64,000 nucleotides of DNA, taken from Gammaproteobacteria bacterium. GTDB lineage: Bacteria; Pseudomonadota; Gammaproteobacteria; JAJPIJ01. Position numbers and translations under genes: made by a program. The DNA is taken from assembly GCA_021324815.1 (NCBI GenBank), contig JAJPIJ010000006.1:24814-88813 (forward strand). Direction: 5' to 3'. Shown piece by piece: positions 6,614-40,035 of the stretch (the stretch's first letter is position 1; each line of letters begins with the position of its first letter). The notes below the pieces were generated by a model, which ran no database searches, had not been told where the DNA came from, and worked only from the letters and a program-made list of their open reading frames with translations.

Positions 6614-7939
6614 TTAACGCAGGTTGCCGATCTGGAAATTGAGCACCGTATTCTGGATCTGGTATTCGTACTTGGCGCGGTTATAGGCGATCTCCGCCTC
6701 GGTTTCGTTGAGTTGCGCCTGCGTCACGTCAATGATGGAGCTCAAGCCGATGTTGTATCGCGACTGGGCGAGATCGAGGGCCTGCGCGGCGTACTCTTTC
6801 AGATGCATGGTGACATCCAGGCTTTCAAAGCCGGCCTTGGTGTCCAGCCACGCGATGCGCACGTCGCGCACCACGCGGTTCTCCGCGTCCGTGAGCAACT
6901 CGTTCACCGAGTCGGCCTTCAGCTTCGCCTGCTCCTCCATGGCGGTGTATTTCCCGCCGTTGAAGATGGGCACGCTGACGTTGATGCCCGCCGCCTCGTA
7001 GGTGTCGCCGAGCCTGGAGTCGCCCACCGGCGTCACGCCCGCCACGGCGAGGAGGTTCACCGTCGGGTAATTGAGCGCCCGCTCGGCCTTGACGAATTTG
7101 AGCGCGGCGTTGTGATCGGCCCGCAGGCTGGCCAGCTCCGGCCTGGCTTCGATGGCGCGGGACAGCAATGCGGCAAGATCGGCCGGCGGCGCCGTCGTGG
7201 TGGCGTTGTCCGCGAGCTGGAAACTGCGCGTGTCGCGGTACCCCATGCTGGTCGACAGGTTGGCGAAGGCGGCCTCCAGGGCGTTCTGCGCCTGGACCAG
7301 GAGCAGCCTGGCCTGTTCGACATTCACCTTCGCGAAACTGACGTCGAGCTCGGACTTGAGCTTGTTTTGCGCCAGCAGCGTGACCCTGGTCAGCAGCAAC
7401 TGCCGTGTGTCCAGGGTTTGCGAGGCCACCTTCACGATGGCCTGCGCCTCCAGCGCCCGGTAGTAGGCCTGGCTGACTTCGAGCAGGATTTGCGCGCGCT
7501 CGGTGTTGAACTGTTCCTCCCGCGACGCCGAGGTGTAGCGTGAACTGTCCACCAGGTTCCTGGTGCGCCCGAAGTCGGTGACCAGCTGATCCACCATCAA
7601 GCCGTTGGATTCCCGCGACAGCACGGTGGGATTGTTCAATCCGCCCGCGGCAATCCGCGTGTCGATGGTGGTGGGAACGCCGTTCCTGTCGCGCGTGAAA
7701 CTGTCGGCGCCGGCCGCCGTGACGCTGGCGGACACGAGCGGGTAATAAGCCGACTCCACTTCGCGGGTCGCCGCCTGCGCCTCGGACACGGCCAGTCTCG
7801 CCGCCCGGATGCGCGGCTGGTTCTCAAGGGCTATCGCCTGCGCCTCCTTGAGGGTCAGGGCCCGGGGAGGCACGTCGGCGGCCGGGGCATGCGGGGAAAG
7901 CAACAGCGCCACAGCGAACATCGGGACATGGTATTTCAT
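6614..7939 (-). CDS. TolC-family outer membrane efflux factor (OMF) of an RND system
   Basis: 441 aa with signal peptide (MKYHVPMFAVALLLSPHAPAA). Two helical-repeat halves and composition are typical of TolC/OprM-family proteins. It is the last gene of the MFP-RND operon on the minus strand. Confidence 0.8.
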   Translation of the reverse strand: MKYHVPMFAVALLLSPHAPAADVPPRALTLKEAQAIALENQPRIRAARLAVSEAQAATREVESAYYPLVSASVTAAGADSFTRDRNGVPTTIDTRIAAGGLNNPTVLSRESNGLMVDQLVTDFGRTRNLVDSSRYTSASREEQFNTERAQILLEVSQAYYRALEAQAIVKVASQTLDTRQLLLTRVTLLAQNKLKSELDVSFAKVNVEQARLLLVQAQNALEAAFANLSTSMGYRDTRSFQLADNATTTAPPADLAALLSRAIEARPELASLRADHNAALKFVKAERALNYPTVNLLAVAGVTPVGDSRLGDTYEAAGINVSVPIFNGGKYTAMEEQAKLKADSVNELLTDAENRVVRDVRIAWLDTKAGFESLDVTMHLKEYAAQALDLAQSRYNIGLSSIIDVTQAQLNETEAEIAYNRAKYEYQIQNTVLNFQIGNLR

Positions 7940-7978
7940 AACGCTGATCCATCCCTTCTCGGACGTGGCGGGCGCGGA

Positions 7979-10900
7979 TTACGCCGCCGGGACGTGTTCC
8001 GCGCGCCGCCGGTAGAACAGAAAATAGGCCACCGGCACGATAAAGATGGTGGTAATCACCGACACCGACAGCCCGCCGATGATCGCCCTGGCCAGCGGGG
8101 CGTAGGCCTCGCTGCCCGTGCCCAGCTTGGCCGCCATCGGGATCAATCCAAAAATGGTCGCCAGCGAGGTCATGAGCACGGGCCGCAGGCGCACCCGGCA
8201 GGCCAGCGCCACCGCCTCGCGCAGGGGCGTGCCCTCCTCCCGCAGCCGGCGGGTGAACTCCACGATCAAAATGCTGTTGGACACCACGATTCCCACCATC
8301 ATGACGATGCCCATCAGTGACATGATATTGAGCGTCGTGCCGGTGGCGAGCAGCATGGCCAGTACTCCCGTCAGTCCCGGTGGAATGGCGAGAAGAATGA
8401 TAAACGGATCGGAAAAAGAGGCAAATTGCGCCACCAGGATCAGATAAACCAGAATCACGGAGAGGATGAGACCCAGTCCGAAGCTGGTGAAGGAGGCCCG
8501 CATGCTCTGCACCGTGCCGCGCAAATCGATTTTCACGCCCTCGGGCAGGGTCGTGTTTTTGACCAGTTGATCGATGGCCGAGGATATCTTCCCGATATCC
8601 TCGGTCACCGTGCCGACGTAGACGTCGATGACGCGCCGCAGTTGATAATGATCGACCTCGGTCGGCGCCTCGACCTTGCTGACCTTCACGACGGCGTCGA
8701 GCAGCGCGGAGCGCCTCTGGTCGCGCGAGCGTATGGGGATGGATTTGAGATCGGACATGCTTTTCACGGCGTCCTCCGGATATTGAACCGTCAGCATGTA
8801 ATCATTGCCGGTGCGGGGATCCACCCAGTAGCTCGGCGCGATCATCGCGTTGGAGGTCAGCGCGGTGATGACGTTGCTCACCACCTCCTTCTGGCTCAGG
8901 CCCAGTTCGCTGGCGCGGACGCGATCCACGTCAAGGCGCAGCGACGGCGCGTCGATGTCCTGCGGTATGAGGACGTCGCTGACGCCCGGCAGCCCGCGGA
9001 TCCGGCCCGCCAGTCCGGCCGCCGTGGCATAGGCGGCCTTGAGATTGGAGCCGCTGACCTGGACGTCAATGGGCGTGGGCAATCCCAGGTTGAGAACGGC
9101 GTCCACCAGCCCGCCGGACTGAAAATAGCTGGTGAGCTGCGGCAATTCGCGGTGGATGCGCTCGCGCACGCGGTCCATGTATTCGTAACTGCCGATCTTG
9201 TGATCCTGCTTCAGACTGGCCTGGACAAAGGCGGTGTGCGTGGCGGAGTTGCTGGTGTACATGGAGGAGTAGCCCGGCGTGGCCCCGATGTTGGACACCA
9301 CGACGTCGAGATCCTCCGGACGGACCTCCTGGCGGATGATATCCTCCACCCTTTTCACCAGCTTCTCCGTCATGGCGAGTTTCAGGCCGGTGGGCGCCTT
9401 GAGATTGACCACGAACTGGCCGGGATCGGTGCGCGGAAAGTAGGCCAGTCCCAGCCGCGGGATGAGGCCCATGCTCATGACGCATATTCCCACGAGGCCC
9501 ACCAGCGTGGCGACGGGGCGCAGCAGCGTGGCCTGCACGCTCCGGTCGTAGCGTTCCAGCATCACCTCGAACTTTCGGTTGAACCAGCGATTGAACCGCG
9601 TCCCCCAGCCGCCGGAGACGGGCGCAGCGTCGTCATCAAGGGCGGCATGACCCTTGATCAGCCTGGCGCAAAACAGCGGCACCACGGTCATGGCCACCAG
9701 GTATGATGCGAACAGGGACAGGACCACGGCGATGGCCAGCGCGGAGAACAGGAAACGGCTGACCCCGTAGAGAAACGTCACCGGGAAGAAGACCACGGCG
9801 GTGGTCAGCGTCGCCGCCAGCACCGGCAGCGCCACCTCCTTGCCGCCCTTTTCGGCCGCCACTTCCGGGCTTTCGCCCAGCTCCATGTGACGGAAAATGT
9901 TTTCCAGCACCACCACGGAATTATCGATGAGCCGGGAGAAGGCCAGCGCGAGCCCTCCCAATATCATCGAATTGACGGAGCTGCCGCCGAAGTAGAGGAT
10001 GATGAAGGCGCCGAGGGCGGACAGCGGTATGGACAGGAATACCGCCGCCGTCGCCCGCAGGCTGCCCAGGAAAATCAATATCATCAATCCCGTCAGCACC
10101 AGCCCGATGGCGCCCTCGTGTATCAGGTTTTCGATGGCCGTCTTGACGAAGATGGACTGGTCGAACACCACCTCGGCGATTAATTCCTTGGGGACGTCGA
10201 CCAGATGGGACAGCGCGTTCTTGATGCCGTCCACCACGGCGATGGTGTTGGTGTCGCCACCCTGTTTCATGACGGGGAGATACACGGATCGCTGCCCGTC
10301 GACGCGCACCACGCTGGTCTGGATTTGCGACGCGTCCCTCGCTTCGCCGACGTCAGCCACCAGGACCGAGGCGTTGTTGACCGTCTTGAGCGGCAGCCGG
10401 TTGATTTCATCGACGCCCGCCAGCTGGCTGTTGGTGTAGATGTTGTAGTCGTACGGACCCACGATCACGTCGCCTGCGGGCAGAATGAGATTGGAATCGT
10501 TCACCGACCTCACCACGTCCATGACGCTGAGCTGGTGCGCCTCGAGTTTCAGCGGATCGACGTAGACCATGATCTGGCGGTACCTGCCGCCGAAGGGCGG
10601 CGGCACGGTGGATCCGGGCACGTTGGCGACCTGGTTGCGGACCTCGAACTGCCCCAGATCGCGCAGGCTGGTCTCGTTGAGTCCCTGCCCCTTCAGGGTG
10701 ATGAGGCAGACCGGCAGGCTGGAGGCGTCGAACTTGAGCACCACCGGCGGCAGGGTGCCGGGCGGCAGCCGGCGCAGATCGGCCATCGCCAGGTTGGAGA
10801 TCATGGAGACCGCCGAATCCGCGCTGGTGCCCGGCTGAAAATAGATTTTGATCAGGCTGACGCCGGGAAGCGAACGGGATTCCATGTGATCGATGCCGCT

Positions 10901-11116
10901 GCCCAGCGTGAAGAACCGCTCGAAGCGGCCGGTGATGTCGTTCTCGATGTCCTCCGGCGGCATCCCGGAGAAAAACGTGGCCACGACGACCACCGGGATG
11001 TTGATGCCGGGGAACAGGTCGACGGGCATGCGCACGAGGCTGCTGACGCCCACCACCACTACCATCAGGCAGGCAACGATGATGAAGTACGGATATCGCA
11101 GGGAAAATTTAGACAT
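7979..11116 (-). CDS. RND efflux transporter permease subunit (AcrB/MexB-like, 1045 aa)
   Basis: 12-TM RND topology with two large periplasmic loops. N-terminus MSKFSLRYPYFIIVACLMVVVVGVSSLVRMPVDLFP… is typical of HAE1-family pumps. Confidence 0.9.
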   Translation of the reverse strand: MSKFSLRYPYFIIVACLMVVVVGVSSLVRMPVDLFPGINIPVVVVATFFSGMPPEDIENDITGRFERFFTLGSGIDHMESRSLPGVSLIKIYFQPGTSADSAVSMISNLAMADLRRLPPGTLPPVVLKFDASSLPVCLITLKGQGLNETSLRDLGQFEVRNQVANVPGSTVPPPFGGRYRQIMVYVDPLKLEAHQLSVMDVVRSVNDSNLILPAGDVIVGPYDYNIYTNSQLAGVDEINRLPLKTVNNASVLVADVGEARDASQIQTSVVRVDGQRSVYLPVMKQGGDTNTIAVVDGIKNALSHLVDVPKELIAEVVFDQSIFVKTAIENLIHEGAIGLVLTGLMILIFLGSLRATAAVFLSIPLSALGAFIILYFGGSSVNSMILGGLALAFSRLIDNSVVVLENIFRHMELGESPEVAAEKGGKEVALPVLAATLTTAVVFFPVTFLYGVSRFLFSALAIAVVLSLFASYLVAMTVVPLFCARLIKGHAALDDDAAPVSGGWGTRFNRWFNRKFEVMLERYDRSVQATLLRPVATLVGLVGICVMSMGLIPRLGLAYFPRTDPGQFVVNLKAPTGLKLAMTEKLVKRVEDIIRQEVRPEDLDVVVSNIGATPGYSSMYTSNSATHTAFVQASLKQDHKIGSYEYMDRVRERIHRELPQLTSYFQSGGLVDAVLNLGLPTPIDVQVSGSNLKAAYATAAGLAGRIRGLPGVSDVLIPQDIDAPSLRLDVDRVRASELGLSQKEVVSNVITALTSNAMIAPSYWVDPRTGNDYMLTVQYPEDAVKSMSDLKSIPIRSRDQRRSALLDAVVKVSKVEAPTEVDHYQLRRVIDVYVGTVTEDIGKISSAIDQLVKNTTLPEGVKIDLRGTVQSMRASFTSFGLGLILSVILVYLILVAQFASFSDPFIILLAIPPGLTGVLAMLLATGTTLNIMSLMGIVMMVGIVVSNSILIVEFTRRLREEGTPLREAVALACRVRLRPVLMTSLATIFGLIPMAAKLGTGSEAYAPLARAIIGGLSVSVITTIFIVPVAYFLFYRRRAEHVPAA

Positions 11117-11162
11117 GACGCATGAACCAATTCATCAAATCAGAGAATGGCGGCGGCAGGTT

Positions 11163-11888
11163 CTAGTCGCGATTCGCCTTGAGCAGCCGCCGCAGTCCTT
11201 CGATTGAAAATTCCGGCGAACGGCAGAAATCGATGATCGCGGATTTCTCCCGGCGCTGGCGTGCGGCGATTTGCGGCAGCTGACCGGCGATCTGCGGCGG
11301 AATCGACAATACGCCGTGCTGGTCGCCGTGCAAGAGATCGCCGGTCCTCACGGTCAGGCCGCCGATCCGCACCGGTTCCCCCGCCTCGACGATGTGCATG
11401 TAGGCGTGAGACACGGTGACGTTCGACGCGAAGACATGAAATCCCAGCGCCTGCACGGCGGGCAGATTGCGCACCGCGCCGTTGGTGACCACCCCGACAC
11501 ATCCCAGGGCCTTGAAGATGTTCGCATGCACCTCGCCGAGGAAGGCGCCCATGCCCGGATGCCTGTCGATATCCTCGACCGCCAGCACCCGCGGCGCCGG
11601 GACGCCGAGCAGATTCTCCCACCAATCGTTACGCACGCCGGTGAAGCGCGCGCGAAAAGGGTCCTGCATCGGCGGCTCGGCCGTGCTGATGCGCAGCGGA
11701 AAGGCGTAGGCGACGAGGGGCTCCGGGCCGGCGGACAGACAGCGGATGCTCGAATCCATGAAGCCCTCGTTGCGCATGCGTATGCCGGTGCTTTCGATGG
11801 CGCTGGCCACGGCGCAACTGTCGAGCCGGCGAAGTTGTTCCACGATGTCGCCCGGAGCACCCGCCCGGCCGGAAGATCCCGCGTTCAT
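11163..11888 (-). CDS. RraA-family protein (ribonuclease E inhibitor RraA / 4-hydroxy-4-methyl-2-oxoglutarate aldolase-like), 241 aa
   Basis: Carries the RraA-type motif …GDLLHGDQHGVLSIP…. Its start overlaps the MFP gene stop by 4 nt (ATGA), and it lies 46 bp upstream of the RND permease. Confidence 0.75.
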   Translation of the reverse strand: MNAGSSGRAGAPGDIVEQLRRLDSCAVASAIESTGIRMRNEGFMDSSIRCLSAGPEPLVAYAFPLRISTAEPPMQDPFRARFTGVRNDWWENLLGVPAPRVLAVEDIDRHPGMGAFLGEVHANIFKALGCVGVVTNGAVRNLPAVQALGFHVFASNVTVSHAYMHIVEAGEPVRIGGLTVRTGDLLHGDQHGVLSIPPQIAGQLPQIAARQRREKSAIIDFCRSPEFSIEGLRRLLKANRD

Positions 11889-13153
11889 TCAAGCTCACCC
11901 TCGCTGATGATTTTCGGACTGACCCTCTCCCCCGGCCTGTAGATGCCGTGCCGCCCCACCACGACGAGGTCGTTCTCCATCAGCCCGGAGATCACCTCGG
12001 CCCGCGTGGAAGTCTCCATTCCCAGGGTGATCGGGCGCTGTTCGAGTTTGTGATCCCGGTCAAGCACGAGAATCGACACGGAACCGTTCCTGCGGTTGGG
12101 CACGGCCTCAATCGGGATCGACAGGGCGTCCTTGTGCCTTTCGACGGTCAGGGTCACGGTGGCATACATGCCCGGCGCCAGTGAAAGATCCGGATTGGGA
12201 ACATCGACCTCGACATGCATGGTGCGCGTGTCGGTCTTGATTTCATCGCTGATGCGCGTGATGTGCGCCGTGAAGGTTTTGTGGATCGACTGGATGTTGA
12301 CCGCCACGGGGTCGCCGATCCGGATCGTGGACGCGACGGATTCCGGCACCGGCAGAACCAGCCGGAGGGGATTCATTTGCGAGATGCGAACCAGGACCTG
12401 GCTGCCGGCCGAGGTGCCGGCGCCGACCAAGGCGCCGGTGTCCGCCAGACGCTCGGTGATCACGCCGTCAAAAGGGGCGATGATTTTGCTGTAATTCAGC
12501 GTGTCCTGGAGGCGGGTCACGTTGGCTTCGGCCTCCTGGATGGCGGCTTCGGCGGCGACCCAGGCGGCGTTGGTCGTTTCGTCATGGGCCCGTGCCTCAT
12601 CCAGGTCCTGTTGTGCAACGAGGTTGGGATGCTCTTTCATCACCCCCGTGAGGCGGGTGTAGGCCAGATGCGCATCCTCATAGGCGGCCTCGGCGCGCGC
12701 CGCCTCGTGCTTGCTGCGTTCCACCGCCGCGCGCGCCTTGCGCAATTCGTCCTGAAGTTCGGGCACTTCCAGGACGGCGAGGACGTCCCCTTCCTTGACG
12801 CGATCCCCCACATCCACGTTCATGACTTGTATGTAACCGGTGACCTTGGCGTGAAGATCCACCCTCTGGAACGGATGAAATTCCGCGGCGATCTCGATCT
12901 GGCGGACAAGATCCTCTCTTTTGACGGGCGCAACGAGCACCGAGGGAAGGCCGGGGGCCCGCCTTGCGGCCTCCGGCGGCGGCCCGCCATGTCTATGGGC
13001 CCGGTCGAACATGACGCCGGCCGCGGCGGCGCCGGCGATGATGATCCCGGCGATGGCCAGCAGACGACGCCGGTCCCCCTGGGGCCGGCGGGGGGCCTTT
13101 TTCACTAAAGCAGCGCCATCGTCAGGCGGGTTCATTGCGGATTCAAGTTCCAT
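11885..13153 (-). CDS. RND efflux periplasmic adaptor (membrane fusion protein, HlyD/AcrA family), 422 aa
   Basis: N-terminal membrane anchor, coiled-coil hairpin region (…ELQDELRKARAAVERSKHEAARAEAAYEDAHLAYTRL…) and beta-barrel domains. It is the first gene of the efflux operon. Confidence 0.85.
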   Translation of the reverse strand: MELESAMNPPDDGAALVKKAPRRPQGDRRRLLAIAGIIIAGAAAAGVMFDRAHRHGGPPPEAARRAPGLPSVLVAPVKREDLVRQIEIAAEFHPFQRVDLHAKVTGYIQVMNVDVGDRVKEGDVLAVLEVPELQDELRKARAAVERSKHEAARAEAAYEDAHLAYTRLTGVMKEHPNLVAQQDLDEARAHDETTNAAWVAAEAAIQEAEANVTRLQDTLNYSKIIAPFDGVITERLADTGALVGAGTSAGSQVLVRISQMNPLRLVLPVPESVASTIRIGDPVAVNIQSIHKTFTAHITRISDEIKTDTRTMHVEVDVPNPDLSLAPGMYATVTLTVERHKDALSIPIEAVPNRRNGSVSILVLDRDHKLEQRPITLGMETSTRAEVISGLMENDLVVVGRHGIYRPGERVSPKIISEGELE

Positions 13154-13299
13154 GTCTTGTACTTTTCCCCGGAGAGGCGTTACGAACCGGCCGCAGCGCT
13201 TGCATGATCGCGGACGGCATCGCCTGAATCCCTGTGGATTTCATGTACAGATTTCCTATTATCCAGAGCGGCGTTTGCCGGCGTGTCCCGCGTTCCGGA

Positions 13300-14697
13300 C
13301 TACGCACACATTCCCTTGGGAATCGTCATGGTGACGCGGCAACCGATTTCCCGCCCGCCATCCATGCGGCCGGCACCGATGGTGACGGCCCCGCCATGGA
13401 CCCGGGCGACGAGGGCCACCAGTGTGAGGCCGAGTCCCGCGCCCGTCCGGCCCCCGCCGGTCCTTGCCGGGGTTCGCGCCGCCTCCAGACGATAAAAGGG
13501 CATCAACACCCGTTCCCGCTCGGCTGGCGGGATGCCCGGCCCCTCGTCGGAAACGCTGAGCGACACGTCCGCGCCGGTGTCGGCGGCGGCCAGGATAATC
13601 CGCCCTGATCCGTATTTTGCCGCGTTCTCGATCAGGTTCCATAGCGCCCGCTTCAGCAATGCCGGATCGGCGATGAGGTGCAGCGGTTCACCCTCCGCGA
13701 CTTCCACCGCCCTGCCCGCCACCAGCGGATCATGCGCGACCTGTTCGGCGATCTGGGCGAGGAACTCCCGCACGTCGATGTCTTCAAGATTCGCCGGCAG
13801 GCCCGTTGCGTCCAGGCGCGTCGCGGTCAGCACGTCCTCCACCAGGCGATCCAGTTCCGCCAGGTCGGTCTCCACGGCGCGCAGGCGATCTTCGGCGATT
13901 TCCCGGCAGGGCAAGAGCTCGAGTGCCACGCGTATGCGCGCCAGGGGTGAGCGGATTTCGTGTGATATGTTCGCCAGCAACTGCCGCTGTCCCCGCAGCA
14001 GGGCGTCGATGCGCTCCGTCATCTGGTCGAAAGCCAGGGACAGTTGTTGCAACTCGTCCGCCTGCCACTGCGCAGGCTTCCACCACGCGGAATTCCGGCG
14101 GCGGGGAGCGGACGCGCGCCAGGTGAAGTCGCCGCGGCCGATACGCCGCGCGGCCTCGGTCAGCCGCTCCAGCGGATGGGAGATGTGCCTGGCCAGCGGC
14201 CGGGTCGCCAGCGCCACGATCAGCCACGCCAGCGTCCAGGTCAGCAGGGGCTGCGGGAGGCCGAAGAACCGCGACCGTTGGTGCGCGGACGCCTCCAGTA
14301 TTCCCAGGCGCTGACCGGAGCGGGGATCGCGGATCAGGAGCTTGACGAGCAATGCCGGCCGGGACAGCCGGATCACTTCCCCGCTCTCGATTTTTTTCAT
14401 TTCCTCGGCGGTTACCGGGGGCAGCTCCTCCCCCGCCGCGGCGAGCACGGACCCCGCGCGATCGCGCACGGTCATGTCCACGTCCAAATCATCGTGAAGT
14501 TGCCGCACCCGCAACGTCAGCGCGGCGCGGTCGTGAAAACTCTCGCCGACGAGGGAGGCCAGATGCGGCCACAGGCGCTCGGACACCTCCGTCTGGAAGG
14601 CGCTGCGGGCGCTGAGATTGAAAAGCGCGCCCGACGTGAGCGAGACGACGAGCACGATCGCGATGAAATACAGATAAATGTGGGTGTGCAAATGCAT
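13300..14697 (-). CDS. Sensor histidine kinase (two TM helices, HAMP, HisKA, HATPase_c), 465 aa
   Basis: H-box …ANISHEIRSPLARI… and N/G-box regions are present (GLGLTLV…). It follows the OmpR-type regulator gene and precedes the efflux operon. Confidence 0.85.
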   Translation of the reverse strand: MHLHTHIYLYFIAIVLVVSLTSGALFNLSARSAFQTEVSERLWPHLASLVGESFHDRAALTLRVRQLHDDLDVDMTVRDRAGSVLAAAGEELPPVTAEEMKKIESGEVIRLSRPALLVKLLIRDPRSGQRLGILEASAHQRSRFFGLPQPLLTWTLAWLIVALATRPLARHISHPLERLTEAARRIGRGDFTWRASAPRRRNSAWWKPAQWQADELQQLSLAFDQMTERIDALLRGQRQLLANISHEIRSPLARIRVALELLPCREIAEDRLRAVETDLAELDRLVEDVLTATRLDATGLPANLEDIDVREFLAQIAEQVAHDPLVAGRAVEVAEGEPLHLIADPALLKRALWNLIENAAKYGSGRIILAAADTGADVSLSVSDEGPGIPPAERERVLMPFYRLEAARTPARTGGGRTGAGLGLTLVALVARVHGGAVTIGAGRMDGGREIGCRVTMTIPKGMCA

Positions 14698-14783
14698 GAT
14701 GACCGGCTTCCGGTTCGGCGGACTACGGTGTTGCGCCGGCCCGGGCCGGCCTTGGGAGGTGGGCGACGCCCCGCGGTTTCATG

Positions 14784-15494
14784 TCAATGTGCGCCATGGC
14801 GCATGAACGCGTATCCCACGCCGCGCACCGTCTTGATGTAACGAGGCTCCCTGGGATTGGCCTCGATCTTGGCGCGCAATCTGGCGATGTACACGTCAAT
14901 CGTTCGATCGAAGACATCGCCCCCCCTCTTGAGGGCGTCGAGCAACTGGTCGCGGGAAAGCACCCGGCCGGCAGAACGCGCCAGCAGCGCCAGCAGATCG
15001 AATTCATACTGCGTCAACACCAGCCGCCGGCCGGCGAGGGACACCTCCCGCGTGTCAAGATTGACCGTCAGATCTCCGGAGGAGACGCACGCCGGCGCCG
15101 GGCTGGCGGCGCCCCCGGAGGCTCGCCGCAGCAACGCCCGCACGCGGGCCAGCAACTCGCGGGGATTGAACGGTTTGGCCAGGTAATCGTCGGCGCCCAG
15201 TTCGAGTCCAACCACCCTGTCCATGACGTCGCCCTTCGCGGTCAGCATCATGACCGGTATCGCGGCCAGTTCCGGCGTCGCCCGGATGCGGCGGCACAGT
15301 TCCAAGCCGTCCAATCCGGGCAGCATGATGTCCAGAATGACGATGTCGAATCGCTTGTTTCGCAATGTGGAGAGACTCGCCGCCGGGTCGCTGATGACGG
15401 TAAGATCGATGTCGTTCGCACCCAGATACTCCCTGGCAAGGGCGCCCAGCCGGGCGTCATCATCAACTAGAAGGACGGAGGCGCGGGATGCCAT
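14784..15494 (-). CDS. OmpR/PhoB-family response regulator (receiver domain plus winged-helix), 236 aa
   Basis: MASRASVLLVDDD…FDIVILDIMLPGLDGLELCRRIR…, with a C-terminal wHTH (…YIKTVRGVGYAF). Confidence 0.9.
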   Translation of the reverse strand: MASRASVLLVDDDARLGALAREYLGANDIDLTVISDPAASLSTLRNKRFDIVILDIMLPGLDGLELCRRIRATPELAAIPVMMLTAKGDVMDRVVGLELGADDYLAKPFNPRELLARVRALLRRASGGAASPAPACVSSGDLTVNLDTREVSLAGRRLVLTQYEFDLLALLARSAGRVLSRDQLLDALKRGGDVFDRTIDVYIARLRAKIEANPREPRYIKTVRGVGYAFMRHGAH

Positions 15495-15630
15495 GACTTT
15501 CTCGTTTCCATCTTCGGATCAGCAGAACCGTAATCAATCATGCCGTCCTCAACCCCTTCGTGCGGGGGGCGGCGCCTGACGGCGGCGCACCTGCCCTTGA
15601 GCGTCGCGCCTGGATGATGACCGCGCCTTC

Positions 15631-15654
15631 AAGGCATATATGGTGATATGCCTT
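15631..15654. promoter_or_regulatory. Perfect 9-bp inverted repeat AAGGCATAT-N6-ATATGCCTT, a candidate operator upstream of the OmpR-type regulator gene
   Basis: Read directly from the sequence. Located ~140 bp upstream of the response-regulator start codon (15494, minus strand). Confidence 0.3.
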
Positions 15655-15822
15655 CGCATATAGACCGATGCCCGCAGTGAAGTTCCTGGGACACCCGCAA
15701 GGTACGGCGCACGGCCACGCTCCGGCGCAGCCTGAATCATTGCTCTTTACGGCGCGAACGGGCTTGTTCGTTTCGGGGCGTGGCCTCCGGATGAGACAAG
15801 GCTACCGGCTTCGTGTTAAGGC

Positions 15823-15838
15823 CATATGTAGAAATATG
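15823..15838. promoter_or_regulatory. Second CATAT-N6-ATATG inverted repeat sharing the core of the 15631 palindrome
   Basis: gCCATATgtagaaATATGac. Same CATAT/ATATG half-sites and 6-bp spacer, 190 bp away in the same intergenic region. Confidence 0.25.
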
Positions 15839-16011
15839 ACTGATTGTTACGATGGCGGGCGGGGCGGGGAAAAAACCGAACGACATCGATCGTCTGGCTG
15901 GTCGATGAAGAAACAAGGAAGCAAGGCTCGCCCTGGCGGAGGCCGGACGGCAGGGTTCCGGGCGTCAGGCGGATGCGCGGCCCATGTCCCCTTCCGTGCC
16001 AGGTGCCGGGA

Positions 16012-16539
16012 TCAGGGGCGGGACGCGGTCTTGTTTTTGTAATTGATGGTGAAGGTGGCGAGATAAATGCCCATCACCGCGCCAACAGAGCCGAATATGA
16101 AATGGGTCAGGATGGGATAGTAGTAGCCGTGTTTGCCGAGACTGCCGGCGGTGACTTCAAACAGAACCGCCAGCGGCACGTCCAGAACCGGCTTCACCAG
16201 AAAGCTGACGCCGCCAAGAACCACGCCCTTGACAATCACCGGCAGACCTTTCGGCGTCACCTTGAACAACAAATCCAGGCAGACGCCGTTCAGCAGGTAA
16301 ATCAACGCGGGCTTGAAGTCATGCGCCAGCAGCATGAAGGACGATTGCACCAGATACGCCATGGCCGCGCCACTGCCCGTCATCAGGCCGGCCCAGGGAT
16401 TGCGGGATTGCATCCGGCCGAACAGCAGCAGCGTCATCCATTCCAAACCATGGCGCCCCGGGATGTTCAACCCGAATCGCAAATGTTGATGCAGGAGGGC
16501 GGCGGCCACGCCCAGGGTGAACAGGGCGAAGAGCGTCAA
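16012..16539 (-). CDS. Small polytopic membrane protein (~175 aa, 5-6 TM), uncharacterised; start inferred at TTG 16539
   Basis: Hydrophobic ORF. In-frame TTG at 16539 lies 9 nt after a GAGGA and 14 nt after the upstream gene stop. Other possible starts are 16602 or 16671, which would overlap the upstream gene. Last gene of the TonB-receptor cluster. Confidence 0.45.
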   Translation of the reverse strand: MTLFALFTLGVAAALLHQHLRFGLNIPGRHGLEWMTLLLFGRMQSRNPWAGLMTGSGAAMAYLVQSSFMLLAHDFKPALIYLLNGVCLDLLFKVTPKGLPVIVKGVVLGGVSFLVKPVLDVPLAVLFEVTAGSLGKHGYYYPILTHFIFGSVGAVMGIYLATFTINYKNKTASRP

Positions 16540-16552
16540 ACTGCCGTCGTCC

Positions 16553-17320
16553 TCAAGGACGTACTGATTTAATGACCGCCTTGTCCAGGACCTTGTATTC
16601 ATGCCGGGCCTCGTCGTGTTCCACCAGCAACACCGCGTGATTATCCACCCTGACCGCCCGGGGCCAGTCACCCAGGTTGATCAGCGCCGTTTCATCCTCA
16701 ATTTCCGCGCCGCCGAGCAGTGACACCTTTTCTATTCCCGCATCCCTCTTCAGATCGCTCACGGTGAGCCTCTGCCCGGCGTACTGCCGCAGCCCCCTGG
16801 GCCACAGATAGCGGCCGTCATTCCCCTGCACGTGCAGGCCGACGGCCGAAAGGGATCCAATGATCCCCTGCTGATTGCCGGTCAGACCCTCAAGCCGGAT
16901 GCCATGTTTGCGCGCCGTAGACCGTGCCTCGTCCTGCCCGACCACGTCCACCTGGGCCTTGCGACCGAAGTCGATGACATTGGACGCCTGAACGTGAGTC
17001 GCGAGGCACAGTCCGGCATCGGACCCTTCCGCCGCCGTCTCCAGCAGGAAGGCACGGCAAAAATCCATCAGTTGATCATCGTCTACGCCGTCGTGGCGCT
17101 TCACCACGAGGCAGGCGGAACTGTTGTGCGAGGTGTAAGGCACCCGGTCATCCACCAGCAATTGATGGCGGGTCACGGCAATCCCCCCCGCCAGATTGTT
17201 CTCCTGCAACCGCTCAATAAGCTGCCTCGCCCTGAATCCCGTGCCCCGGGTTTCCAGGTTGTCCGTGTCGTCAATGCCTATATAGGTCAGGTCATTGCTC
17301 AATGGGATCAGCCGCTTCAT
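16553..17320 (-). CDS. Uncharacterised soluble protein (256 aa) with N-terminal motif YIGIDDTDN…TRGTGF
   Basis: Internal ATG at 17320 gives MKRLIPLSNDLTYIGIDDTD…. The listed 17485 start would overlap the receptor gene 3' end. No signal peptide or TM helix. Sits between the TonB-dependent receptor gene and the small membrane protein gene. Confidence 0.5.
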   Translation of the reverse strand: MKRLIPLSNDLTYIGIDDTDNLETRGTGFRARQLIERLQENNLAGGIAVTRHQLLVDDRVPYTSHNSSACLVVKRHDGVDDDQLMDFCRAFLLETAAEGSDAGLCLATHVQASNVIDFGRKAQVDVVGQDEARSTARKHGIRLEGLTGNQQGIIGSLSAVGLHVQGNDGRYLWPRGLRQYAGQRLTVSDLKRDAGIEKVSLLGGAEIEDETALINLGDWPRAVRVDNHAVLLVEHDEARHEYKVLDKAVIKSVRP

Positions 17321-17399
17321 GCATGGCCCGCCACCGGGTGGCGGAGGCAAACACTGGCCGGTGGAACGTTCAACGGGGATTGATCTTATCCCAACGGCA

Positions 17400-19463
17400 T
17401 TACGATCCAAAATGCAGCTCGCCGCCAAAGAATATGGTTCTCCCGGGAGAGGGGAATCCGCCGCTGTCCATGTAGTTTTCATCAAACAGGTTCAAGGCGC
17501 GGCCGAAGATGCTGATATCGCCGAAACTTTTCTCCACCTTGAGATCGAACAGGTCGTAGTCGCCTATGTTCCTGGAGACGGTCGGCGTGGCCTTGGAAAG
17601 ATCGACGCTGCCGTCGACGTGGTAATAAGAGGCATACAATTCCACGCCGAACGGCAGGAGATAATTGACCTCGGTGGTGACGCGATGGCGGGGCCTGTTC
17701 TGCAGGTCATGGTCGGTCACGCCGGCCGACAGGTTCCTGGAGTCCATGAACGTGTAACCGGCCCGGATTTGCAGGTTCCGCAGCGGCGCGATCTCGCCGG
17801 CCAGCTCAATGCCCTGAAACCTGTCCCGGTCGATGTTCTGGGCGACGCCGTTACTGTCCGCCTCGATGAAATTGTTTGCATCGGTGCGGAAAAATGTGAT
17901 GCCCGCGCTCGCAGGGATGACGGCGAAGGTTTGGGTGACGCCGGCCTCATACTCCTTTGTCACCTCCGGCTTGAGACCCGGATTCGCGCGCCCCGGTTCG
18001 AACAAATCGGTCAGCGTGGGAAAGCGAATCTGGCGGGAATGATTGAAATGCAACCGGGTGTGCTCAAAGACGTCATAATACGTTCCAACAAGATAGGATA
18101 CATCGTCATTATTGCCGGCCGTGCGGGTCTGCCAATTGTAACCGACGCCGCCGACCAGTCCCAGCCGCTCGTACAGTCGCAACTCGTGCTCGTAACTGAC
18201 CGAACAAATATCGTCGGATTCGTCCACCAATGTGGGCTGGGTTATGTTGGTCGTGGTGCTGGTGGTGGTTTTCTTCTTTCCTTTCCCCGTTGTGCCCGTC
18301 GTGGTTTGGCCCACTATCTGGAATCCATCGTCATGCCACTGCTCATTACGACAATTCAATGCCACGGAGCTCAAACCCGCCGCGGCAAAATCATAGCTGG
18401 CCACCAGGCTGCCTCCCAGAATATCGGAGCGGGTGTTGTCACCGAAGGCGCCGGCGGCGCTCCGGGTGTTGAAGTTGGCGTTGTCGTAATTGTTGTCCAG
18501 TTCATCCAGGCGGTTGAAATAAATCGTCGGGCGGATCGTCAATGGCGCCTGGAATTTATGCTGCCCGGTCAGGTTGAGGGAGAATCCCTCGAAATCGTTT
18601 ACCCGTTCGAAGCGCGAGCGGGTCGCGAACGGATCAGCGTCGGTACCCGTGAAATCGCGCACATCCGGGGGTATGCCGAAGGAGCCTTTTTTATAACTTC
18701 CGCTGATGCCGATCTCGGTGCCAGGCAACCCCTGCCATATTGAATTGGCATAAAGATTCAAATTGTCGCGATCGCTGTTGATTCTCTGCCCCTGGGGTTG
18801 AAAGTTGTTGGGGGTGGGCGGACCGGTGACGGGCACGGGATTGTAGTCATCCGAGAGATGAAAACTGTCCTGATGGAATCCTGATGCACTCATGAAGGAA
18901 TGCCAGTCTTCGCCGCCGGTACCCGCGCTGATCTGGCCGTGTTTGACGCCGTCCCCGTTGCCGCCGAATTCCGTCAGGGCGTGGCCTTGGAATCTTTCCC
19001 CGCCGGCCTTGGTGATGATGTTGATCACGCCAGCGGTGCCGCCGGATCCGTACAATAATGAACTGGTGCCGCGCGTGATCTTGATGCGCTCGATGTTTTC
19101 CACGTCGATGGCCGAGGGATCGAATTGACCGTCGATGGCCGAATTGATTGGCACGCCATCAAGCAGCAGAATGATTTGACGCGTCCGCAATCCGCGGATG
19201 TCGATGCGCGGTGTCCCGTCCCCGCCCGTCCGGACGTAGAGGCCCGGCAGCAGTTTGAGAGCCTCGTTGAGGTCGCGGGCCCCCGATCGATGAATGTCCT
19301 CGGCCGTCACTTCATCGACGGTGCCCACTTCCTCGACGACGCGAGGCTTGTCGCCCGAGACGACGATTTCGCCCAAATCAAAGGCCGGGTCCTGGGCTTG
19401 TACAGCCGTGCTGATCAATGCCGCGCTGACGATCAGCGGCGGATTCCGCCGTCTTGTACCCAT
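17400..19463 (-). CDS. TonB-dependent outer-membrane receptor (687 aa)
   Basis: Signal peptide, TonB box (DLGEIVVSG), plug domain motifs (…RGTSSLLYGSGGTAGVINIITK…) and a long beta-barrel. The C-terminus ends …GGELHFGS, with the aromatic residue at -3 rather than terminal. Confidence 0.85.
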   Translation of the reverse strand: MGTRRRNPPLIVSAALISTAVQAQDPAFDLGEIVVSGDKPRVVEEVGTVDEVTAEDIHRSGARDLNEALKLLPGLYVRTGGDGTPRIDIRGLRTRQIILLLDGVPINSAIDGQFDPSAIDVENIERIKITRGTSSLLYGSGGTAGVINIITKAGGERFQGHALTEFGGNGDGVKHGQISAGTGGEDWHSFMSASGFHQDSFHLSDDYNPVPVTGPPTPNNFQPQGQRINSDRDNLNLYANSIWQGLPGTEIGISGSYKKGSFGIPPDVRDFTGTDADPFATRSRFERVNDFEGFSLNLTGQHKFQAPLTIRPTIYFNRLDELDNNYDNANFNTRSAAGAFGDNTRSDILGGSLVASYDFAAAGLSSVALNCRNEQWHDDGFQIVGQTTTGTTGKGKKKTTTSTTTNITQPTLVDESDDICSVSYEHELRLYERLGLVGGVGYNWQTRTAGNNDDVSYLVGTYYDVFEHTRLHFNHSRQIRFPTLTDLFEPGRANPGLKPEVTKEYEAGVTQTFAVIPASAGITFFRTDANNFIEADSNGVAQNIDRDRFQGIELAGEIAPLRNLQIRAGYTFMDSRNLSAGVTDHDLQNRPRHRVTTEVNYLLPFGVELYASYYHVDGSVDLSKATPTVSRNIGDYDLFDLKVEKSFGDISIFGRALNLFDENYMDSGGFPSPGRTIFFGGELHFGS

Positions 19464-19526
19464 GCCAATCCCCGCTTCAAGAAATTTTCTTATTAAGTTA
19501 CAAAAGTGTGTTTTAAATTAATATGC

Positions 19527-19543
19527 AATGATATTCATATTAT
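19527..19543. promoter_or_regulatory. Fur-box-like AT-rich element AATGATATTCATATTAT in the promoter of the TonB-dependent receptor
   Basis: About 12/16 identity to the AATGATAATCATTATC portion of the Fur consensus. Located 64-80 bp upstream of the receptor start. Confidence 0.3.
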
Positions 19544-19594
19544 GTTGTACTTATTATTTTTTCAGAAATATAAATGACAATTTTCGTACATAAA

Positions 19595-19614
19595 ATATGT
19601 ATATATATGCATAT
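19595..19614. promoter_or_regulatory. Near-perfect 20-bp AT palindrome ATATGTATATATATGCATAT, a candidate metalloregulator (Zur/Fur-type) operator
   Basis: 18/20 symmetric. Lies inside a ~150-bp stretch of <30% GC (19490-19640) in an otherwise ~68% GC window. Confidence 0.3.
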
Positions 19615-19716
19615 TAAAGGAAGTCAAAAGAAGCGCCGGAAAGGGGCGAGACAAGATTTAAGCATTCACCGCAACAACCACGGGGCCGGCGGCAGATAAG
19701 CCTAGAATAGCTCCCT

Positions 19717-20649
19717 TCAGCAGTCCTGCAACGCCTTCAGTATTTCACCGGCGCCGCGTCTCAGGAGGTCTTCAGCGAGGCGACAAGCCAGCCCCTCCGC
19801 TTCCATGCGCGGGCCGCGGAGTTCTCCACGTATGATCTCGCCGCCGTCGGGACGGCCCACCAGGGCGCGCAAGATCAATTGTGCGCCGCTCAACTGGGCA
19901 CAACCGGCGATCGGCACCTGGCAGTTGCCGCCGAGCCGTCGGTTGAGCGCCCGCTCGGCCAGCACGCAGGTTTGCGTCTCGGCGTCATTGAGCGGCGTGA
20001 TCAATTCCAGAACGCGCGCATCGTCACTGCGGCACTCAATGCCGATGGCGCCCTGGCCGATGGCCGGCAGCATGACTTCAATGGGCAAATGCTGGCGCAC
20101 ATGCTTCTCCAGCCCCAGCCGTCTGACGCCGGCGGCGGCCAGCACGATGGCGTCATATTCGCCGGCCTCCAGTTTTTTCACGCGCGTGCCCACATTGCCG
20201 CGCAAGGGCAGCACCTGCGCGTCGCTGCGCCAGGCCTTGAGCTGGCACTGGCGGCGCAGGCTGGCGGTGCCCAGCCGCGCGCCGCGCGGCAGGGCATCGA
20301 GGCTGGCGTAATGAACGGACAGCAGCACATCACGCACATCCTCCCGTTTCAACGTCACCGGCACCGCGAGCCCGGCGGGCAGATCCACAGTGACGTCCTT
20401 CATTGAATGCACGGCGATGTCGGCGCGCCCGTCCAGCAGGCTCTCCTCCAGTTCCTTGGTAAACAGGCCCTTGCCGCCGGCGCGGGCAAGCGGACTGTCG
20501 AGGATTTTGTCGCCGCGCGTGTGCATGCCGGTGATCCGCACGTCGAGGCCGGGATGGCGCGCCAAGAGCAAGCCGCGTACGTGCTCCGCCTGCCACAGGG
20601 CCAGCGGGCTTTTGCGGGTGGCGATGGTGAGCGATGTCAGGGAGGACAC
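19717..20649 (-). CDS. hemC: Hydroxymethylbilane synthase (porphobilinogen deaminase)
   Basis: Near-colinear with E. coli HemC (…[13 protein letters not shown]…[15 protein letters not shown]…[11 protein letters not shown]…). Confidence 0.9.
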
Positions 20650-21743: not shown

Positions 21744-22790
21744 ATGCGGGCGGCGGGAAAAGAGGGAATTCTATTGTCCGCAGTCACTGCTGCCCCAATA
21801 ATCACGCCGGGTGACCGTCTGGGTCTCACCCTCTGCCTGGCCTTACTTCTTCACGCGATGTTTGTGTTTGGCATCGCCTTCAAGCCGTCGGGCAAGGCCA
21901 CGCGCTACAACATGATGGAAATCGTGCTGGTGCAGAGCCGCTCCGATGTGCCGCCCGTGGACGCCGAACGGCTGGCGCAGGCCAATCATGTCGGCGGCGG
22001 GGAGTCGGAGGAAAACACCCGTCCGGCCACGCCGTTTCACGCCGTGCTGCCCGCGGCCTTCGGGCCGCTGCCGCCCGCGGCCGCGGCGCCCGCGCCCGCC
22101 ATCAATCCATCGGCCGGCAGCGCCGCCCCGCCGACACCGCCCCCGCCATCCGCATCCACCGACGTCCATAAGCTCGCGGCGGAGACGCCAGCATCGCCTG
22201 CCGCGGCGCCGCCAAGGGCGAAGATCAGGCCGGATAGAAGGATCGAAAAGGTGGTTCCGAAAAAAATCCCCCGGGATGCCGAGCAGAAAAGCCCGCCGCC
22301 GAAAACGCAGGCCGTTGCCCAAACACCGCCGCCCGCGCCGGTGCCGACGGCGGCAACCCTGGTGGCGAGGAGTTTCGCCATCGCCAGCCTCGATGCGGAG
22401 ATCGAGGAGCGCGAAAATGCCATTGCCAAGCGGCCGCGGCGCAAGTTCATCTCCGCCAGCACCCGCGAGTACAAATATGCCGCCTATATGGAGGCGTGGC
22501 GCGCCAAGGTCGAACGCGTGGGTAATCTCAATTATCCGGATGAGGCACGCCGCAAAAAACTTTCCGGCAGCCTCATCCTCGATGTCGCTCTGAACTCCGA
22601 CGGTTCCATCAACGAGATCACCATCCGGCGTCCCTCCGGCCAGCCCGTGCTGGACGACGCCGCGGTCCGCATCGTCAAAATGGCGGCGCCTTACGCGCCT
22701 TTCCCCGAGGATTTCGTCAAGGAGGTCGACATCCTGCACATCACCCGCACCTGGCAGTTCCAGAGCAGCGAACGTTTTGCCGCGCAATGA
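21744..22790 (+). CDS. tonB: TonB-family energy transducer (N-terminal TM helix, Pro/Ala-rich spacer, C-terminal TonB domain)
   Basis: Pro-rich central region (PPPAPVPTAAT…) and conserved C-terminal TonB domain (…YPDEARRKKLSGSLILDVALNSDGSINEITIRRPSGQPVLDDAAVRIVK…). Start is ATG 21744; an alternative is TTG 21714. Confidence 0.75.
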   Translation: MRAAGKEGILLSAVTAAPIITPGDRLGLTLCLALLLHAMFVFGIAFKPSGKATRYNMMEIVLVQSRSDVPPVDAERLAQANHVGGGESEENTRPATPFHAVLPAAFGPLPPAAAAPAPAINPSAGSAAPPTPPPPSASTDVHKLAAETPASPAAAPPRAKIRPDRRIEKVVPKKIPRDAEQKSPPPKTQAVAQTPPPAPVPTAATLVARSFAIASLDAEIEERENAIAKRPRRKFISASTREYKYAAYMEAWRAKVERVGNLNYPDEARRKKLSGSLILDVALNSDGSINEITIRRPSGQPVLDDAAVRIVKMAAPYAPFPEDFVKEVDILHITRTWQFQSSERFAAQ

Positions 22791-39134: not shown

Positions 39135-39854
39135 TCAGTACAGGAAGCTCAGGTTACATTGCTGCGCATTGTTGGTAATGTCCCAGTTGCCACTGGCGTC
39201 CATGCAGTTGGTGGCCGTCGGCTTGCTCACCGCGTTAAAATCAGGGCCGGCCTGCTGGTTGAGGCGCAGGACGCCACTGCCGGCAATGCCGTCATCCACC
39301 TTGACGTCCAGTTCGCGCGCGATATTGACCGGAATGTTATTGCCGATGATGAGGCTCAGGCGGGCCGATGCCGGCGCGGCGCAGGAATTGTCGCCGCAGA
39401 AGTCCTTGTGGAAAGCGAGCAGCAGTTCGCCGTTGAACGCATTCACCGGCGCGACGTTGGCATTGGCGGTGTACAGGGCCGCCGTCGTGGCGTTGCCCGC
39501 GTAGGCGCCCTGTATGAAGCCGGCCTTGGAAAGCTGCTCCCACATGGCGGAGGCCTCCGCCCAGGAACCCTCGTCAAGCTGGCCGTTGCCATTGCCGCCA
39601 CCATTGATGGTTTGACCTATGGCGGTCTGCGCGGCTGCAGCCGACCAATCCCCGGGAACCTGGCGGAAACGATCGATGAAGCCGTAATAGGCGGCCTGGA
39701 CGCCGGAACTCTGGTCGGCCAGATTGCGCACGCGGGCGCTGTTGATGAGTTCCTGGCCTTTCAGGATGCCGCCAAGAAGCAGGCCGATGATGACCAGCAC
39801 GATGGCGATTTCCACCAGCGTAAAGCCGCGTTGTTTGTCGTAGGCGGTGTTCAT
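39135..39854 (-). CDS. Type IV pilin / pseudopilin-like protein (prepilin N-terminal cleavage-methylation domain), 239 aa
   Basis: MNTAYDKQRG|FTLVEIAIVLVIIGLLLGGIL class-III signal peptide. C-terminal Cys pair(s). Confidence 0.75.
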   Translation of the reverse strand: MNTAYDKQRGFTLVEIAIVLVIIGLLLGGILKGQELINSARVRNLADQSSGVQAAYYGFIDRFRQVPGDWSAAAAQTAIGQTINGGGNGNGQLDEGSWAEASAMWEQLSKAGFIQGAYAGNATTAALYTANANVAPVNAFNGELLLAFHKDFCGDNSCAAPASARLSLIIGNNIPVNIARELDVKVDDGIAGSGVLRLNQQAGPDFNAVSKPTATNCMDASGNWDITNNAQQCNLSFLY

Positions 39855-39904
39855 GATTTTTTAAAACCTCATAAAGTATGGATTTATCACTTGCCTTAGC
39901 ATAA

Positions 39905-39919
39905 GCATTGGTTGTGCCA
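39905..39919 (-). promoter_or_regulatory. Candidate sigma-54 promoter (minus strand) TGGCACaaccaATGC upstream of the pilin gene
   Basis: Reverse complement of 39905-39919. GG/GC spacing matches the consensus. Located ~50 bp upstream of the pilin ATG inside an AT-rich region. Confidence 0.4.
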
Positions 39920-40035
39920 TATATATAATTGCTTATTTATTATAGGGTTGATTAATGCATCCACAAAATGGTGCATCGCCCACTGTTAGTGTTTACGACA
40001 GAATTGTCAGTGTTTTGACAATGTCTGACACCGAA

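Follow-up and report, generated by a model that had tools for sequence, protein, structure and literature searches.

Within a 64-kb window of contig JAJPIJ010000006.1 from a gammaproteobacterial genome (assembly GCA_021324815.1; the window is the whole 64,000-nucleotide stretch analyzed), three minus-strand genes encode a TonB-dependent receptor and two partner proteins, here termed T and S. The receptor gene (17400-19463) encodes 687 amino acids (aa) and is separated by 79 nt from the gene for T (16553-17320), whose product begins MKRLIPLSNDLTYIGIDDTDN and carries the motif YIGIDDTDN...TRGTGF. The gene for S (16012-16602) encodes a membrane protein. The initial annotation of this DNA had given the partners 256 and 175 aa; both genes are present, and their products have 255 aa (T) and, by our reading, 196 aa (S). 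The N-terminal stretch TNTxFWKKxSLNQYV is common to 22 homologues of S of about 195 aa each, and the window encodes it from the ATG at 16602. Because this extra stretch is conserved, a length of 196 aa is more likely than 175 aa, and S therefore begins 50 nt inside the 3' end of T. Upstream, a spacer of 253 bp (19464-19716, minus strand) lies between the receptor gene and hemC (19717-20649, minus strand) and contains an AT-rich regulatory island. Downstream, about 80 nt past the S stop codon, a consensus scan tentatively placed a weak terminator-like hairpin (15922-15935, minus strand); such hairpins were rarer in that scan than in shuffled sequence. The receptor-T-S trio looks like a single operon.

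Related loci were sampled at one genome per species, which yielded 565 loci with relatives of T, and the best 80 were kept (L numbers below). Genes in these loci were called crudely as the longest open reading frames, and spurious antisense frames in loci of high guanine-plus-cytosine (GC) content were ignored. Identity to the nearest relatives is 59-74%. S directly follows T in 74 of the 80 loci, and in all 74 the start projected for S falls within T, 38-65 nt (median, 56 nt) before its end. This overlap was found in Gamma-, Beta-, and Alphaproteobacteria, Chloroflexota, Bacteroidota, a Nostocales cyanobacterium, Acidobacteriota, and Gemmatimonadota (at least 8 phyla). In the window (16553-16602) and in the 74 loci, the last ~50-56 nt of T are thus read in two frames and also supply the first ~17-19 codons of S. 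Both products of the overlap are conserved, T as ...YKVLDKxxIKSxRP and S as TNTxFWKKxSLNQYV, and dual coding is kept across phyla. Such a constant out-of-frame overlap suggests translational coupling and a fixed stoichiometry and, therefore, that T and S form a complex.

The initial annotation had proposed the trio as a module, and the comparison of gene neighborhoods across the 80 loci bears this out, since its members are co-conserved. About 50 loci, none of them from Chloroflexota, have a TonB receptor adjoining T-S on one side or the other. T-S is accordingly the core unit, and a receptor joins it in most loci outside that phylum. The same receptor-T-S trio also occurs in a Pseudomonadales genome at an unrelated place, directly after moeA. 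A distant relative of T with 33% identity (L087, 1035-1775) stands alone, with no S gene after it. The pairing therefore holds for the sampled subfamily (at least ~43% identity) and not necessarily for all 804 clusters of the T family, and some members of the wider TCKD-like family may have different partners or roles. In Bacteroidota (L038, L043, L048, L054, L058, L063, L064, L074, L078, L084, and L085), T-S is followed by a conserved lipoprotein of ~310 aa (cluster c7), which has no Pfam family, and then by the TonB receptor; a protein of ~280 aa (c14) comes after the receptor in L048, L063, L074, L084, and L085. Protein c7 may be a surface-lipoprotein partner of the receptor.

T is a cytoplasmic protein whose N-terminal ~165 aa form a TiaS-type kinase domain (TCKD). 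Its C-terminal ~85 aa form a beta-rich domain that has no assignment, the whole-model fold searches being dominated by TCKD. TiaS is the archaeal tRNA(Ile2) 2-agmatinylcytidine synthetase, and a resemblance to its kinase-like N terminus, offered in the initial annotation as a loose and unsubstantiated suggestion, turned out to be real homology. A phmmer search of T against the PDB found Archaeoglobus fulgidus TiaS across the whole kinase domain (E value, 2e-4), and a profile built from 57 members of the T family matched the Pyrococcus furiosus and A. fulgidus TiaS sequences with E values of 2e-14 to 9.5e-14. Residues D17-D18-T19-D20 of T align with the GIDDTD motif of TiaS, and T27 aligns with TiaS Thr18, so T has both the DDTD nucleotide/Mg motif and the Thr18 equivalent of a TCKD kinase domain. 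The PYTSHN and GxIGALxAVG blocks are likewise shared with TiaS. Within the T family, DDTD, T27, RHQ, PYTSHN, GxIGALxAVG, and a GNDGR motif show little or no variation. Thr18 is the autophosphorylation site of TiaS, and the roles of the individual residues are those reported in the 2011 work on that enzyme. Since these motifs are conserved in T, ATP-dependent phosphotransfer by T is plausible. TiaS itself acts as a kinase on both RNA and protein (PMC11938285).

Curated models placed T less closely. The Pfam model TiaS_TCKD matched T below threshold (19.3 bits versus 27), and one relative passes. In NCBIfam, residues 13-165 had subthreshold matches to methanogenesis marker protein 11 and to TiaS, the TiaS equivalog NF040849 scoring 26.5 bits against a cutoff of 600. 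Membership in the marker 11 family (TIGR03280) was rejected, since its match was below the cutoff (38 bits versus 255.8) and covered only model positions 136-284 of 292. The T family comprises 804 clusters at 50% identity (E value of ≤1e-3), and nearly all of the listed members have ~245 aa. Their annotations say no more than "hypothetical" or "ABC transporter substrate-binding protein," the latter a label that probably derives from gene context. Among longer members we found no informative domain fusions, only TCKD.

Judged by its sequence, T is a homologue of the TiaS kinase domain and not a TiaS orthologue. The homology to the catalytic domain and the conserved active-site motifs would also suit a bacterial TiaS-like RNA-modifying enzyme whose linkage to a membrane protein is incidental, but we consider this exceedingly improbable. 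The full architecture of TiaS comprises TCKD, a ferredoxin-like domain, an OB domain, and a zinc ribbon. The OB and zinc-ribbon domains of TiaS hold the tRNA, and T lacks both: it has 255 aa rather than ~420, aligns over only 176 residues to the 416-residue TiaS chain, and carries a C-terminal domain of its own. The equivalog score is far below its cutoff, the gene overlaps that of a membrane protein in 74 of the 80 loci, and its gene context is one of molybdenum and tungsten (Mo/W) metabolism (see below). In addition, bacteria use TilS for the corresponding tRNA modification (PMC11938285).

S has six transmembrane helices arranged in the fold of the S-components of energy-coupling factor (ECF) transporters, and its best structural matches are all S-components. 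The closest solved structures by fold were YkoE, RibU, PanT, BioY, ThiT, and FolT, all of which bind vitamins or vitamin precursors; BtuM ranked 19th. With ~190 aa and six helices, S resembles the ECF S-components YkoE, RibU, ThiT, and CbiM as well as solitary BioY and BtuM. Its best conserved motif, PGHHGLEW, is a polar stretch in the loop between helices 1 and 2, which in solved S-components covers the substrate pocket. Invariant polar residues lie in helices 2, 4, 5, and 6 (R63, D110, K137, and H167), and the positively charged ends suggest an N-in/C-in topology. At the level of sequence, S matched no family in Pfam or NCBIfam at an E value of ≤1, a profile search against solved S-component sequences found none, and all 80 of 80 homologues found by profile are unnamed and have no Pfam domain. 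S thus shares a fold with S-components but no detectable sequence relationship to any S-component family.

S also differs from S-components in its company. It is strictly paired with a TCKD protein instead of EcfT/EcfAA', and a periplasmic oxyanion-binding protein, a component foreign to ECF transporters, often accompanies it. Among the neighbors in the 80 loci no EcfT-like cluster recurred, as for solitary BioY and BtuM, although a shared module may be encoded elsewhere. The recurrent ATP-binding cassette (ABC) ATPase and permease near the module are WtpC-like and TupB-like. The ligand of S is likely inorganic (tungsten or molybdenum) rather than a vitamin.

The receptor belongs to the TonB-dependent superfamily. 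It matched the Pfam families Plug (7.4e-26; 91 bits, cutoff 23.9) and TonB_dep_Rec_b-barrel (4e-31; 110 bits, cutoff 27), and it has an N-terminal plug and a 22-strand barrel. A putative signal peptide, MGTRRRNPPLIVSAALISTAVQA|QD, is followed by a candidate TonB box, DLGEIVVSG; both were read by eye. No NCBIfam equivalog came near its cutoff, and similarity to PDB structures was limited to the plug, so that homology cannot assign its specificity. The plus strand at ~21858-22790, ~2.4 kb from the receptor gene and beyond hemC and gshB, encodes a 310-aa protein that has a TonB C-terminal domain and could be the energizer of the receptor.

The best NCBIfam match of the receptor was to a BtuB model (1e-43), and hemC, a tetrapyrrole gene, is the upstream neighbor. 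These two observations would fit cobalamin uptake by a BtuB-like receptor with a BtuM-like solitary S-component. The BtuB scores, however, are far below their cutoffs (150 bits versus 599.7 for TIGR01779 and 130 versus 836 for NF007926), and the similarity is confined to the plug. BtuM is only the 19th fold match of S, the adjacency of hemC is not conserved, no cobalamin gene recurs in the 80 loci, and no cobalamin riboswitch was found even at an E value of ≤1. Cobalamin uptake is therefore scarcely credible as the role of the trio.

The neighbors of the module point to other metals. Neighboring open reading frames were clustered, and recurrent clusters were named with Pfam and NCBIfam. At least one verified Mo/W gene lies within 6 kb in 53 of the 80 loci. 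The regulators encoded nearby combine an ArsR-, excisionase-, or ModE-type helix-turn-helix with the PBP_like domain PF12727 (3e-63), a domain that also forms the C terminus of some MoeA proteins. Small proteins consisting of a ModE N-terminal repressor domain (TIGR00637, 5e-26) are encoded directly upstream of T. Transport proteins include TupA (1e-68, with the TTTS motif), TupB (2e-45), WtpA (above its cutoff), and a WtpC-like ATPase. Neighbors with an Oxidored_molyb domain also recur; formate dehydrogenase alpha and beta genes adjoin the module in Methylomicrobium, Methylotuvimicrobium, and others; and MoaC (above cutoffs), MoaE (below), and MoeA are found. The Gammaproteobacteria nearest to the window encode an oxyanion-type binding protein immediately after S (SBP_bac_11 and PBP_like_2, both above threshold). 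An oxyanion-binding protein is present in 40 of the 80 loci, 22 of which have no TupB-type permease within 6 kb. In Chloroflexota the operon runs regulator, small lipoprotein, T, S, TupA, TupB, and TupC. The module thus shares neighborhoods, and in Chloroflexota operons, with importers of the TupABC/WtpABC/ModABC type, from which the trio differs in having no ABC permease or ATPase of its own.

Among the 80 loci no iron, zinc, cobalt, or cobalamin gene recurs. Searches of the window by tblastn with TupA-like, TupB, PBP_like-regulator, and ModE-N queries found no other Mo/W gene. The Mo/W assignment of the window depends on orthology, because the window carries only the minimal trio. Molybdenum cofactor (Moco) and cobalamin riboswitches were absent from the window (gathering threshold), from 15400-19800 (E value of ≤1), and from 12 related loci; elsewhere the RNA search returned only two S-adenosylmethionine (SAM) riboswitches and a tRNA. 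The SAM riboswitches (minus strand; L025, 4115-4212, and L027, 2225-2406) lie beside Chloroflexota T-S-Tup operons on the opposite strand, and a methionine-synthase-like gene stands at the start of L025 on the strand of the riboswitch; they are probably unrelated to the module.

We consider it probable that the module belongs to Mo/W homeostasis. One alternative within this field is the salvage of a Moco-linked organic molecule, such as a pterin or cofactor precursor, which the receptor and S would import and T would phosphorylate and so trap. The solved S-components closest to S all bind vitamins or precursors, T is a kinase-domain homologue, and MoaC, MoaE, and MoeA lie near the module in some loci; salvage would also explain why T-S and TupABC coexist in one operon. 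The same logic, in which a receptor of the outer membrane is encoded together with a small protein of the inner membrane and a cytoplasmic enzyme that uses ATP, is known from PnuC-NadR and from thiamine salvage by a receptor, PnuT, and a kinase, although those proteins belong to unrelated families and phosphorylation as a trap is hypothetical in the trio. Nevertheless, the commonest neighbors are oxyanion-binding proteins and oxyanion-responsive regulators rather than cofactor enzymes, the resemblance to HPPK extends only to a generic alpha/beta fold, and the window and 12 related loci lack a Moco riboswitch. We regard salvage as unlikely.

A second alternative gives T-S no import role. The pair might instead sense Mo/W, select between tungsten and molybdenum, use ATP to activate the oxyanion for pterin insertion, or serve in storage, with the receptor and binding proteins merely coregulated. 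The complete TupABC importer in the Chloroflexota operons would fit this view, as would the conserved Thr27, which could be an autophosphorylation site. TiaS, moreover, is generally known to activate an oxo group by phosphorylation, and its kinase nature is documented (PMC11938285). Against such roles stand the fold of S, which is that of substrate-capture transport proteins, the 22 loci that have a binding protein and no permease but do have S within 6 kb, and the placement of the receptor directly within the same operon. A role outside transport appears decidedly unlikely.

Turning from the proteins to their control region, we found that the island core (19480-19629) has a GC content of 18.7%, the lowest of all 150-bp stretches in the window (mean, 64.3%; standard deviation, 5.9%). 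The AT-rich island of the initial annotation is therefore real and extreme, whereas the locus GC of 68% given there is too high for a window with this mean. The two promoter elements it had described are also present. A pattern search showed each to be an exact copy of ATATG-N10-CATAT, a motif found by lining up the regions upstream of orthologous receptor genes from four other genera and often extended to AATATG-N10-CATATT. Copy A (ATATGTATATATATGCATAT, 19595-19614) is the former 20-bp palindrome and is self-complementary at 18 of 20 positions; copy B (ATATGCAATGATATTCATAT, 19521-19540) is where the Fur-box-like element AATGATATTCATATTAT (19527-19543) lies. Copies A and B are the sole matches to the motif in the 64-kb window, even when up to one mismatch is allowed, and the extended motif had a full match in 0 of 2,000 shuffles of the island.

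The motif recurs with the module. Exact sites number 20 in 82 non-redundant related loci (929 kb), compared with an expectation of 0.65 from shuffles in which local composition was kept. Exact sites lie directly 5' of the receptor gene in L007, L008, L009, and L010, directly 5' of T in L049, L058, L067, and L073, and 5' of the gene for a ModE-type regulator in L051, L059, and L071. Copies with one mismatch were found 5' of T in further loci and at the junction of S and the lipoprotein gene in Bacteroidota, where the S/c7 junction has exact or one-mismatch operators. Because some copies sit within GC-rich DNA, as does the L067 site AAATATGCACGCGTGTGCATATCG, AT richness does not account for the motif. 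Pairs of sites spaced by 66-74 nt also recur (74 nt in the window, 67 in L007, 66 in L059, and 67 in L071). On this comparative evidence, the two boxes are copies of a putative operator common to orthologous modules.

The two copies in the window are 74 nt apart and have a sigma-70-like promoter candidate between them on the minus strand (19553-19580; TTGTCA, 16 nt, AATAAT), which a consensus scan identified by 10 of 12 matches. Copy A lies 15-34 nt upstream of the predicted -35 hexamer. Copy B lies just 3' of the predicted -10 hexamer and would span about +6 to +25 if transcription started ~7 nt past it. This arrangement appears repressor-like, to the extent that the promoter match is sound. 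The trio (16012-19463) has a GC content of 58.9%, compared with 64.7% in the flanking DNA, and a third-codon-position GC of 0.73-0.77 versus 0.79-0.87. Its nearest relatives occur in genomes of 37-52% GC whose upstream regions are similarly AT rich. It is suggestive, and only that, that the island may partly be inherited through horizontal transfer of the trio with its control region. Binding of an H-NS-like silencer to the AT tract is possible. The second most AT-rich stretch of the window (39856-40005; 32.7% GC) has no ATATG-N10-CATAT and sits just 5' of a type IV pilin-like gene (39135-39854, minus strand) whose product has the N terminus MNTAYDKQRGFTLVEIAIVLVIIG.

The initial annotation had read the island as a sign of Fur/Zur-type metal control. 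The best match in the island to the Fur consensus GATAATGATAATCATTATC was 12 of 19, a score equaled by 1,204 of 2,000 composition-matched shuffles, and the Zur consensus gave no signal, scoring worse than shuffles. Fur/Zur control was rejected, since the Fur match is at chance level, Zur has no signal, and the matched bases belong to a different conserved motif. The uptake of an iron, zinc, or cobalt metallophore under such control could draw on the 12-of-19 match in an AT-rich promoter and on the dominance of siderophore receptors in the TonB receptor family. In addition to the regulatory evidence, it is contradicted by the absence of any recurring iron or zinc gene in the 80 loci and by the siderophore-receptor models, every one of which was below its cutoff (TIGR01783, 133 bits versus 223.5). 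Such uptake is very improbable. Of the proposed metal or metallophore uptake module, uptake fits a TonB receptor with a transporter-fold membrane protein, whereas iron, zinc, and cobalt do not fit, since no gene for them recurs and the neighbors are Mo/W genes.

A regulator of the ModE family agrees better with the context. The E. coli ModE consensus is ATCGNTATATA-N6-TATATANCGAT (PMC545781). The island matched the core of this consensus at 10 of 12 positions, which 22% of shuffles also reached. Both operators are palindromic and AT rich and share the half-site core TAT[A/G] in the same register, the ModE consensus having TATA at -9 to -6 from the dyad and the new motif having TATG at the same positions and CATA mirrored. 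The module operator differs in lacking the CG flanks and in having G/C at the inner half-site position. Genes of ModE-N type adjoin the module in ~18 loci, where they stand immediately beside the sites in Bacteroidota and in L051, L059, and L071. Taken alone, the E. coli core match lacks significance, and the argument for a regulator of the ModE family therefore comes from this context. A tblastn search with a ModE-N query found no ModE-type gene in the 64-kb window; such a regulator would therefore have to be encoded elsewhere.

Taken as a whole, these data lead us to favor, with caution, the reading of receptor-T-S as a Mo/W-responsive uptake module. The three genes would be transcribed as one operon from the AT-rich island. 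The two copies of ATATG-N10-CATAT flanking the core promoter would be bound by a dimeric regulator, probably a ModE-family protein whose gene lies outside the window, and when tungsten or molybdenum is scarce, the operator would be freed and the operon transcribed. The TonB receptor would then carry tungstate or molybdate, free or complexed, across the outer membrane. S, a solitary ECF-S-type protein, would capture the oxyanion and translocate it across the inner membrane, supplied in many relatives by an "orphan" oxyanion-binding periplasmic protein. T, kept in fixed proportion to S by the gene overlap, would use ATP at the cytoplasmic face either to drive release of the substrate or to trap or activate it chemically. 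In this picture the folds and homologies, the strict T-S pairing, the Mo/W neighborhoods, and the conservation of the operator are established by the data, whereas transport, its substrate, the regulator, and the reaction of T are inferred.

Several observations weigh against this reading. No member of the T or S family has been characterized. To our knowledge, the known chemistry of TCKD is limited to the phosphorylation of a cytidine and of its own Thr and does not extend to coupling with transport. The conserved His, Glu, and Asp residues of S would also be in keeping with the binding of a cation or organic ligand. Since Chloroflexota T-S shares an operon with a complete TupABC importer, a second tungstate importer there would be redundant. 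Resemblance of the putative operator to the ModE consensus of E. coli is confined to the half-site core (10 of 12, as in 22% of shuffles). Finally, 22 of the 80 loci have no Mo/W gene nearby, and the window has no other Mo/W, oxyanion-binding, or ModE-type gene, so that the proposed Mo/W link at this locus derives from its orthologues.

The uptake reading also has a bolder form, in which T-S would be an unrecognized primary importer present in many phyla. An ECF-S-type protein would be energized or completed by a TiaS-type kinase domain rather than by ABC ATPases and would import tungstate or molybdate delivered by the receptor and the orphan binding protein, possibly with phosphorylation or adenylation of the oxyanion as a form of group translocation. 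We offer this version as a tentative idea that we rather doubt.

Beyond the trio, the minus-strand genes that follow it (6614-15494) encode an OmpR-family response regulator (14784-15494), a histidine kinase (13300-14697), and a resistance-nodulation-division (RND) efflux operon. In that operon an RraA-like gene (~11163-11888) lies between the genes for the membrane-fusion protein (11885-13153) and the pump (~7979-11116), and an outer-membrane factor comes next. The two-component system is a generic OmpR-family pair to which searches gave no specific family assignment, and it more likely serves the adjacent RND pump.

The known prokaryotic routes for tungsten and molybdenum are the ABC importers Mod, Tup, and Wtp, and we know of no dedicated or TonB-dependent outer-membrane step established for their oxyanions. 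The literature searched contained no description of the T-S pair, of bacterial TCKD proteins, or of a Mo/W-linked TonB receptor, and neither T nor S has a curated family. If the uptake reading is correct, it would add a TonB-dependent step to Mo/W acquisition and a new type of partner for S-component-like membrane proteins. Bacterial proteins homologous to the TiaS kinase domain would also gain a first function, their fold having been known until now only in the modification of archaeal tRNA, and the operator would offer a direct handle for defining the regulon. The module is present in methanotrophs, nitrifiers, Anaerolineae, and Bacteroidota, and in such organisms tungsten- or molybdenum-dependent formate dehydrogenase, nitrate/nitrite enzymes, and aldehyde oxidoreductases are important to the turnover of carbon and nitrogen. 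The module could thus be relevant where trace metals are limiting, in the environment as well as in bioprocesses.

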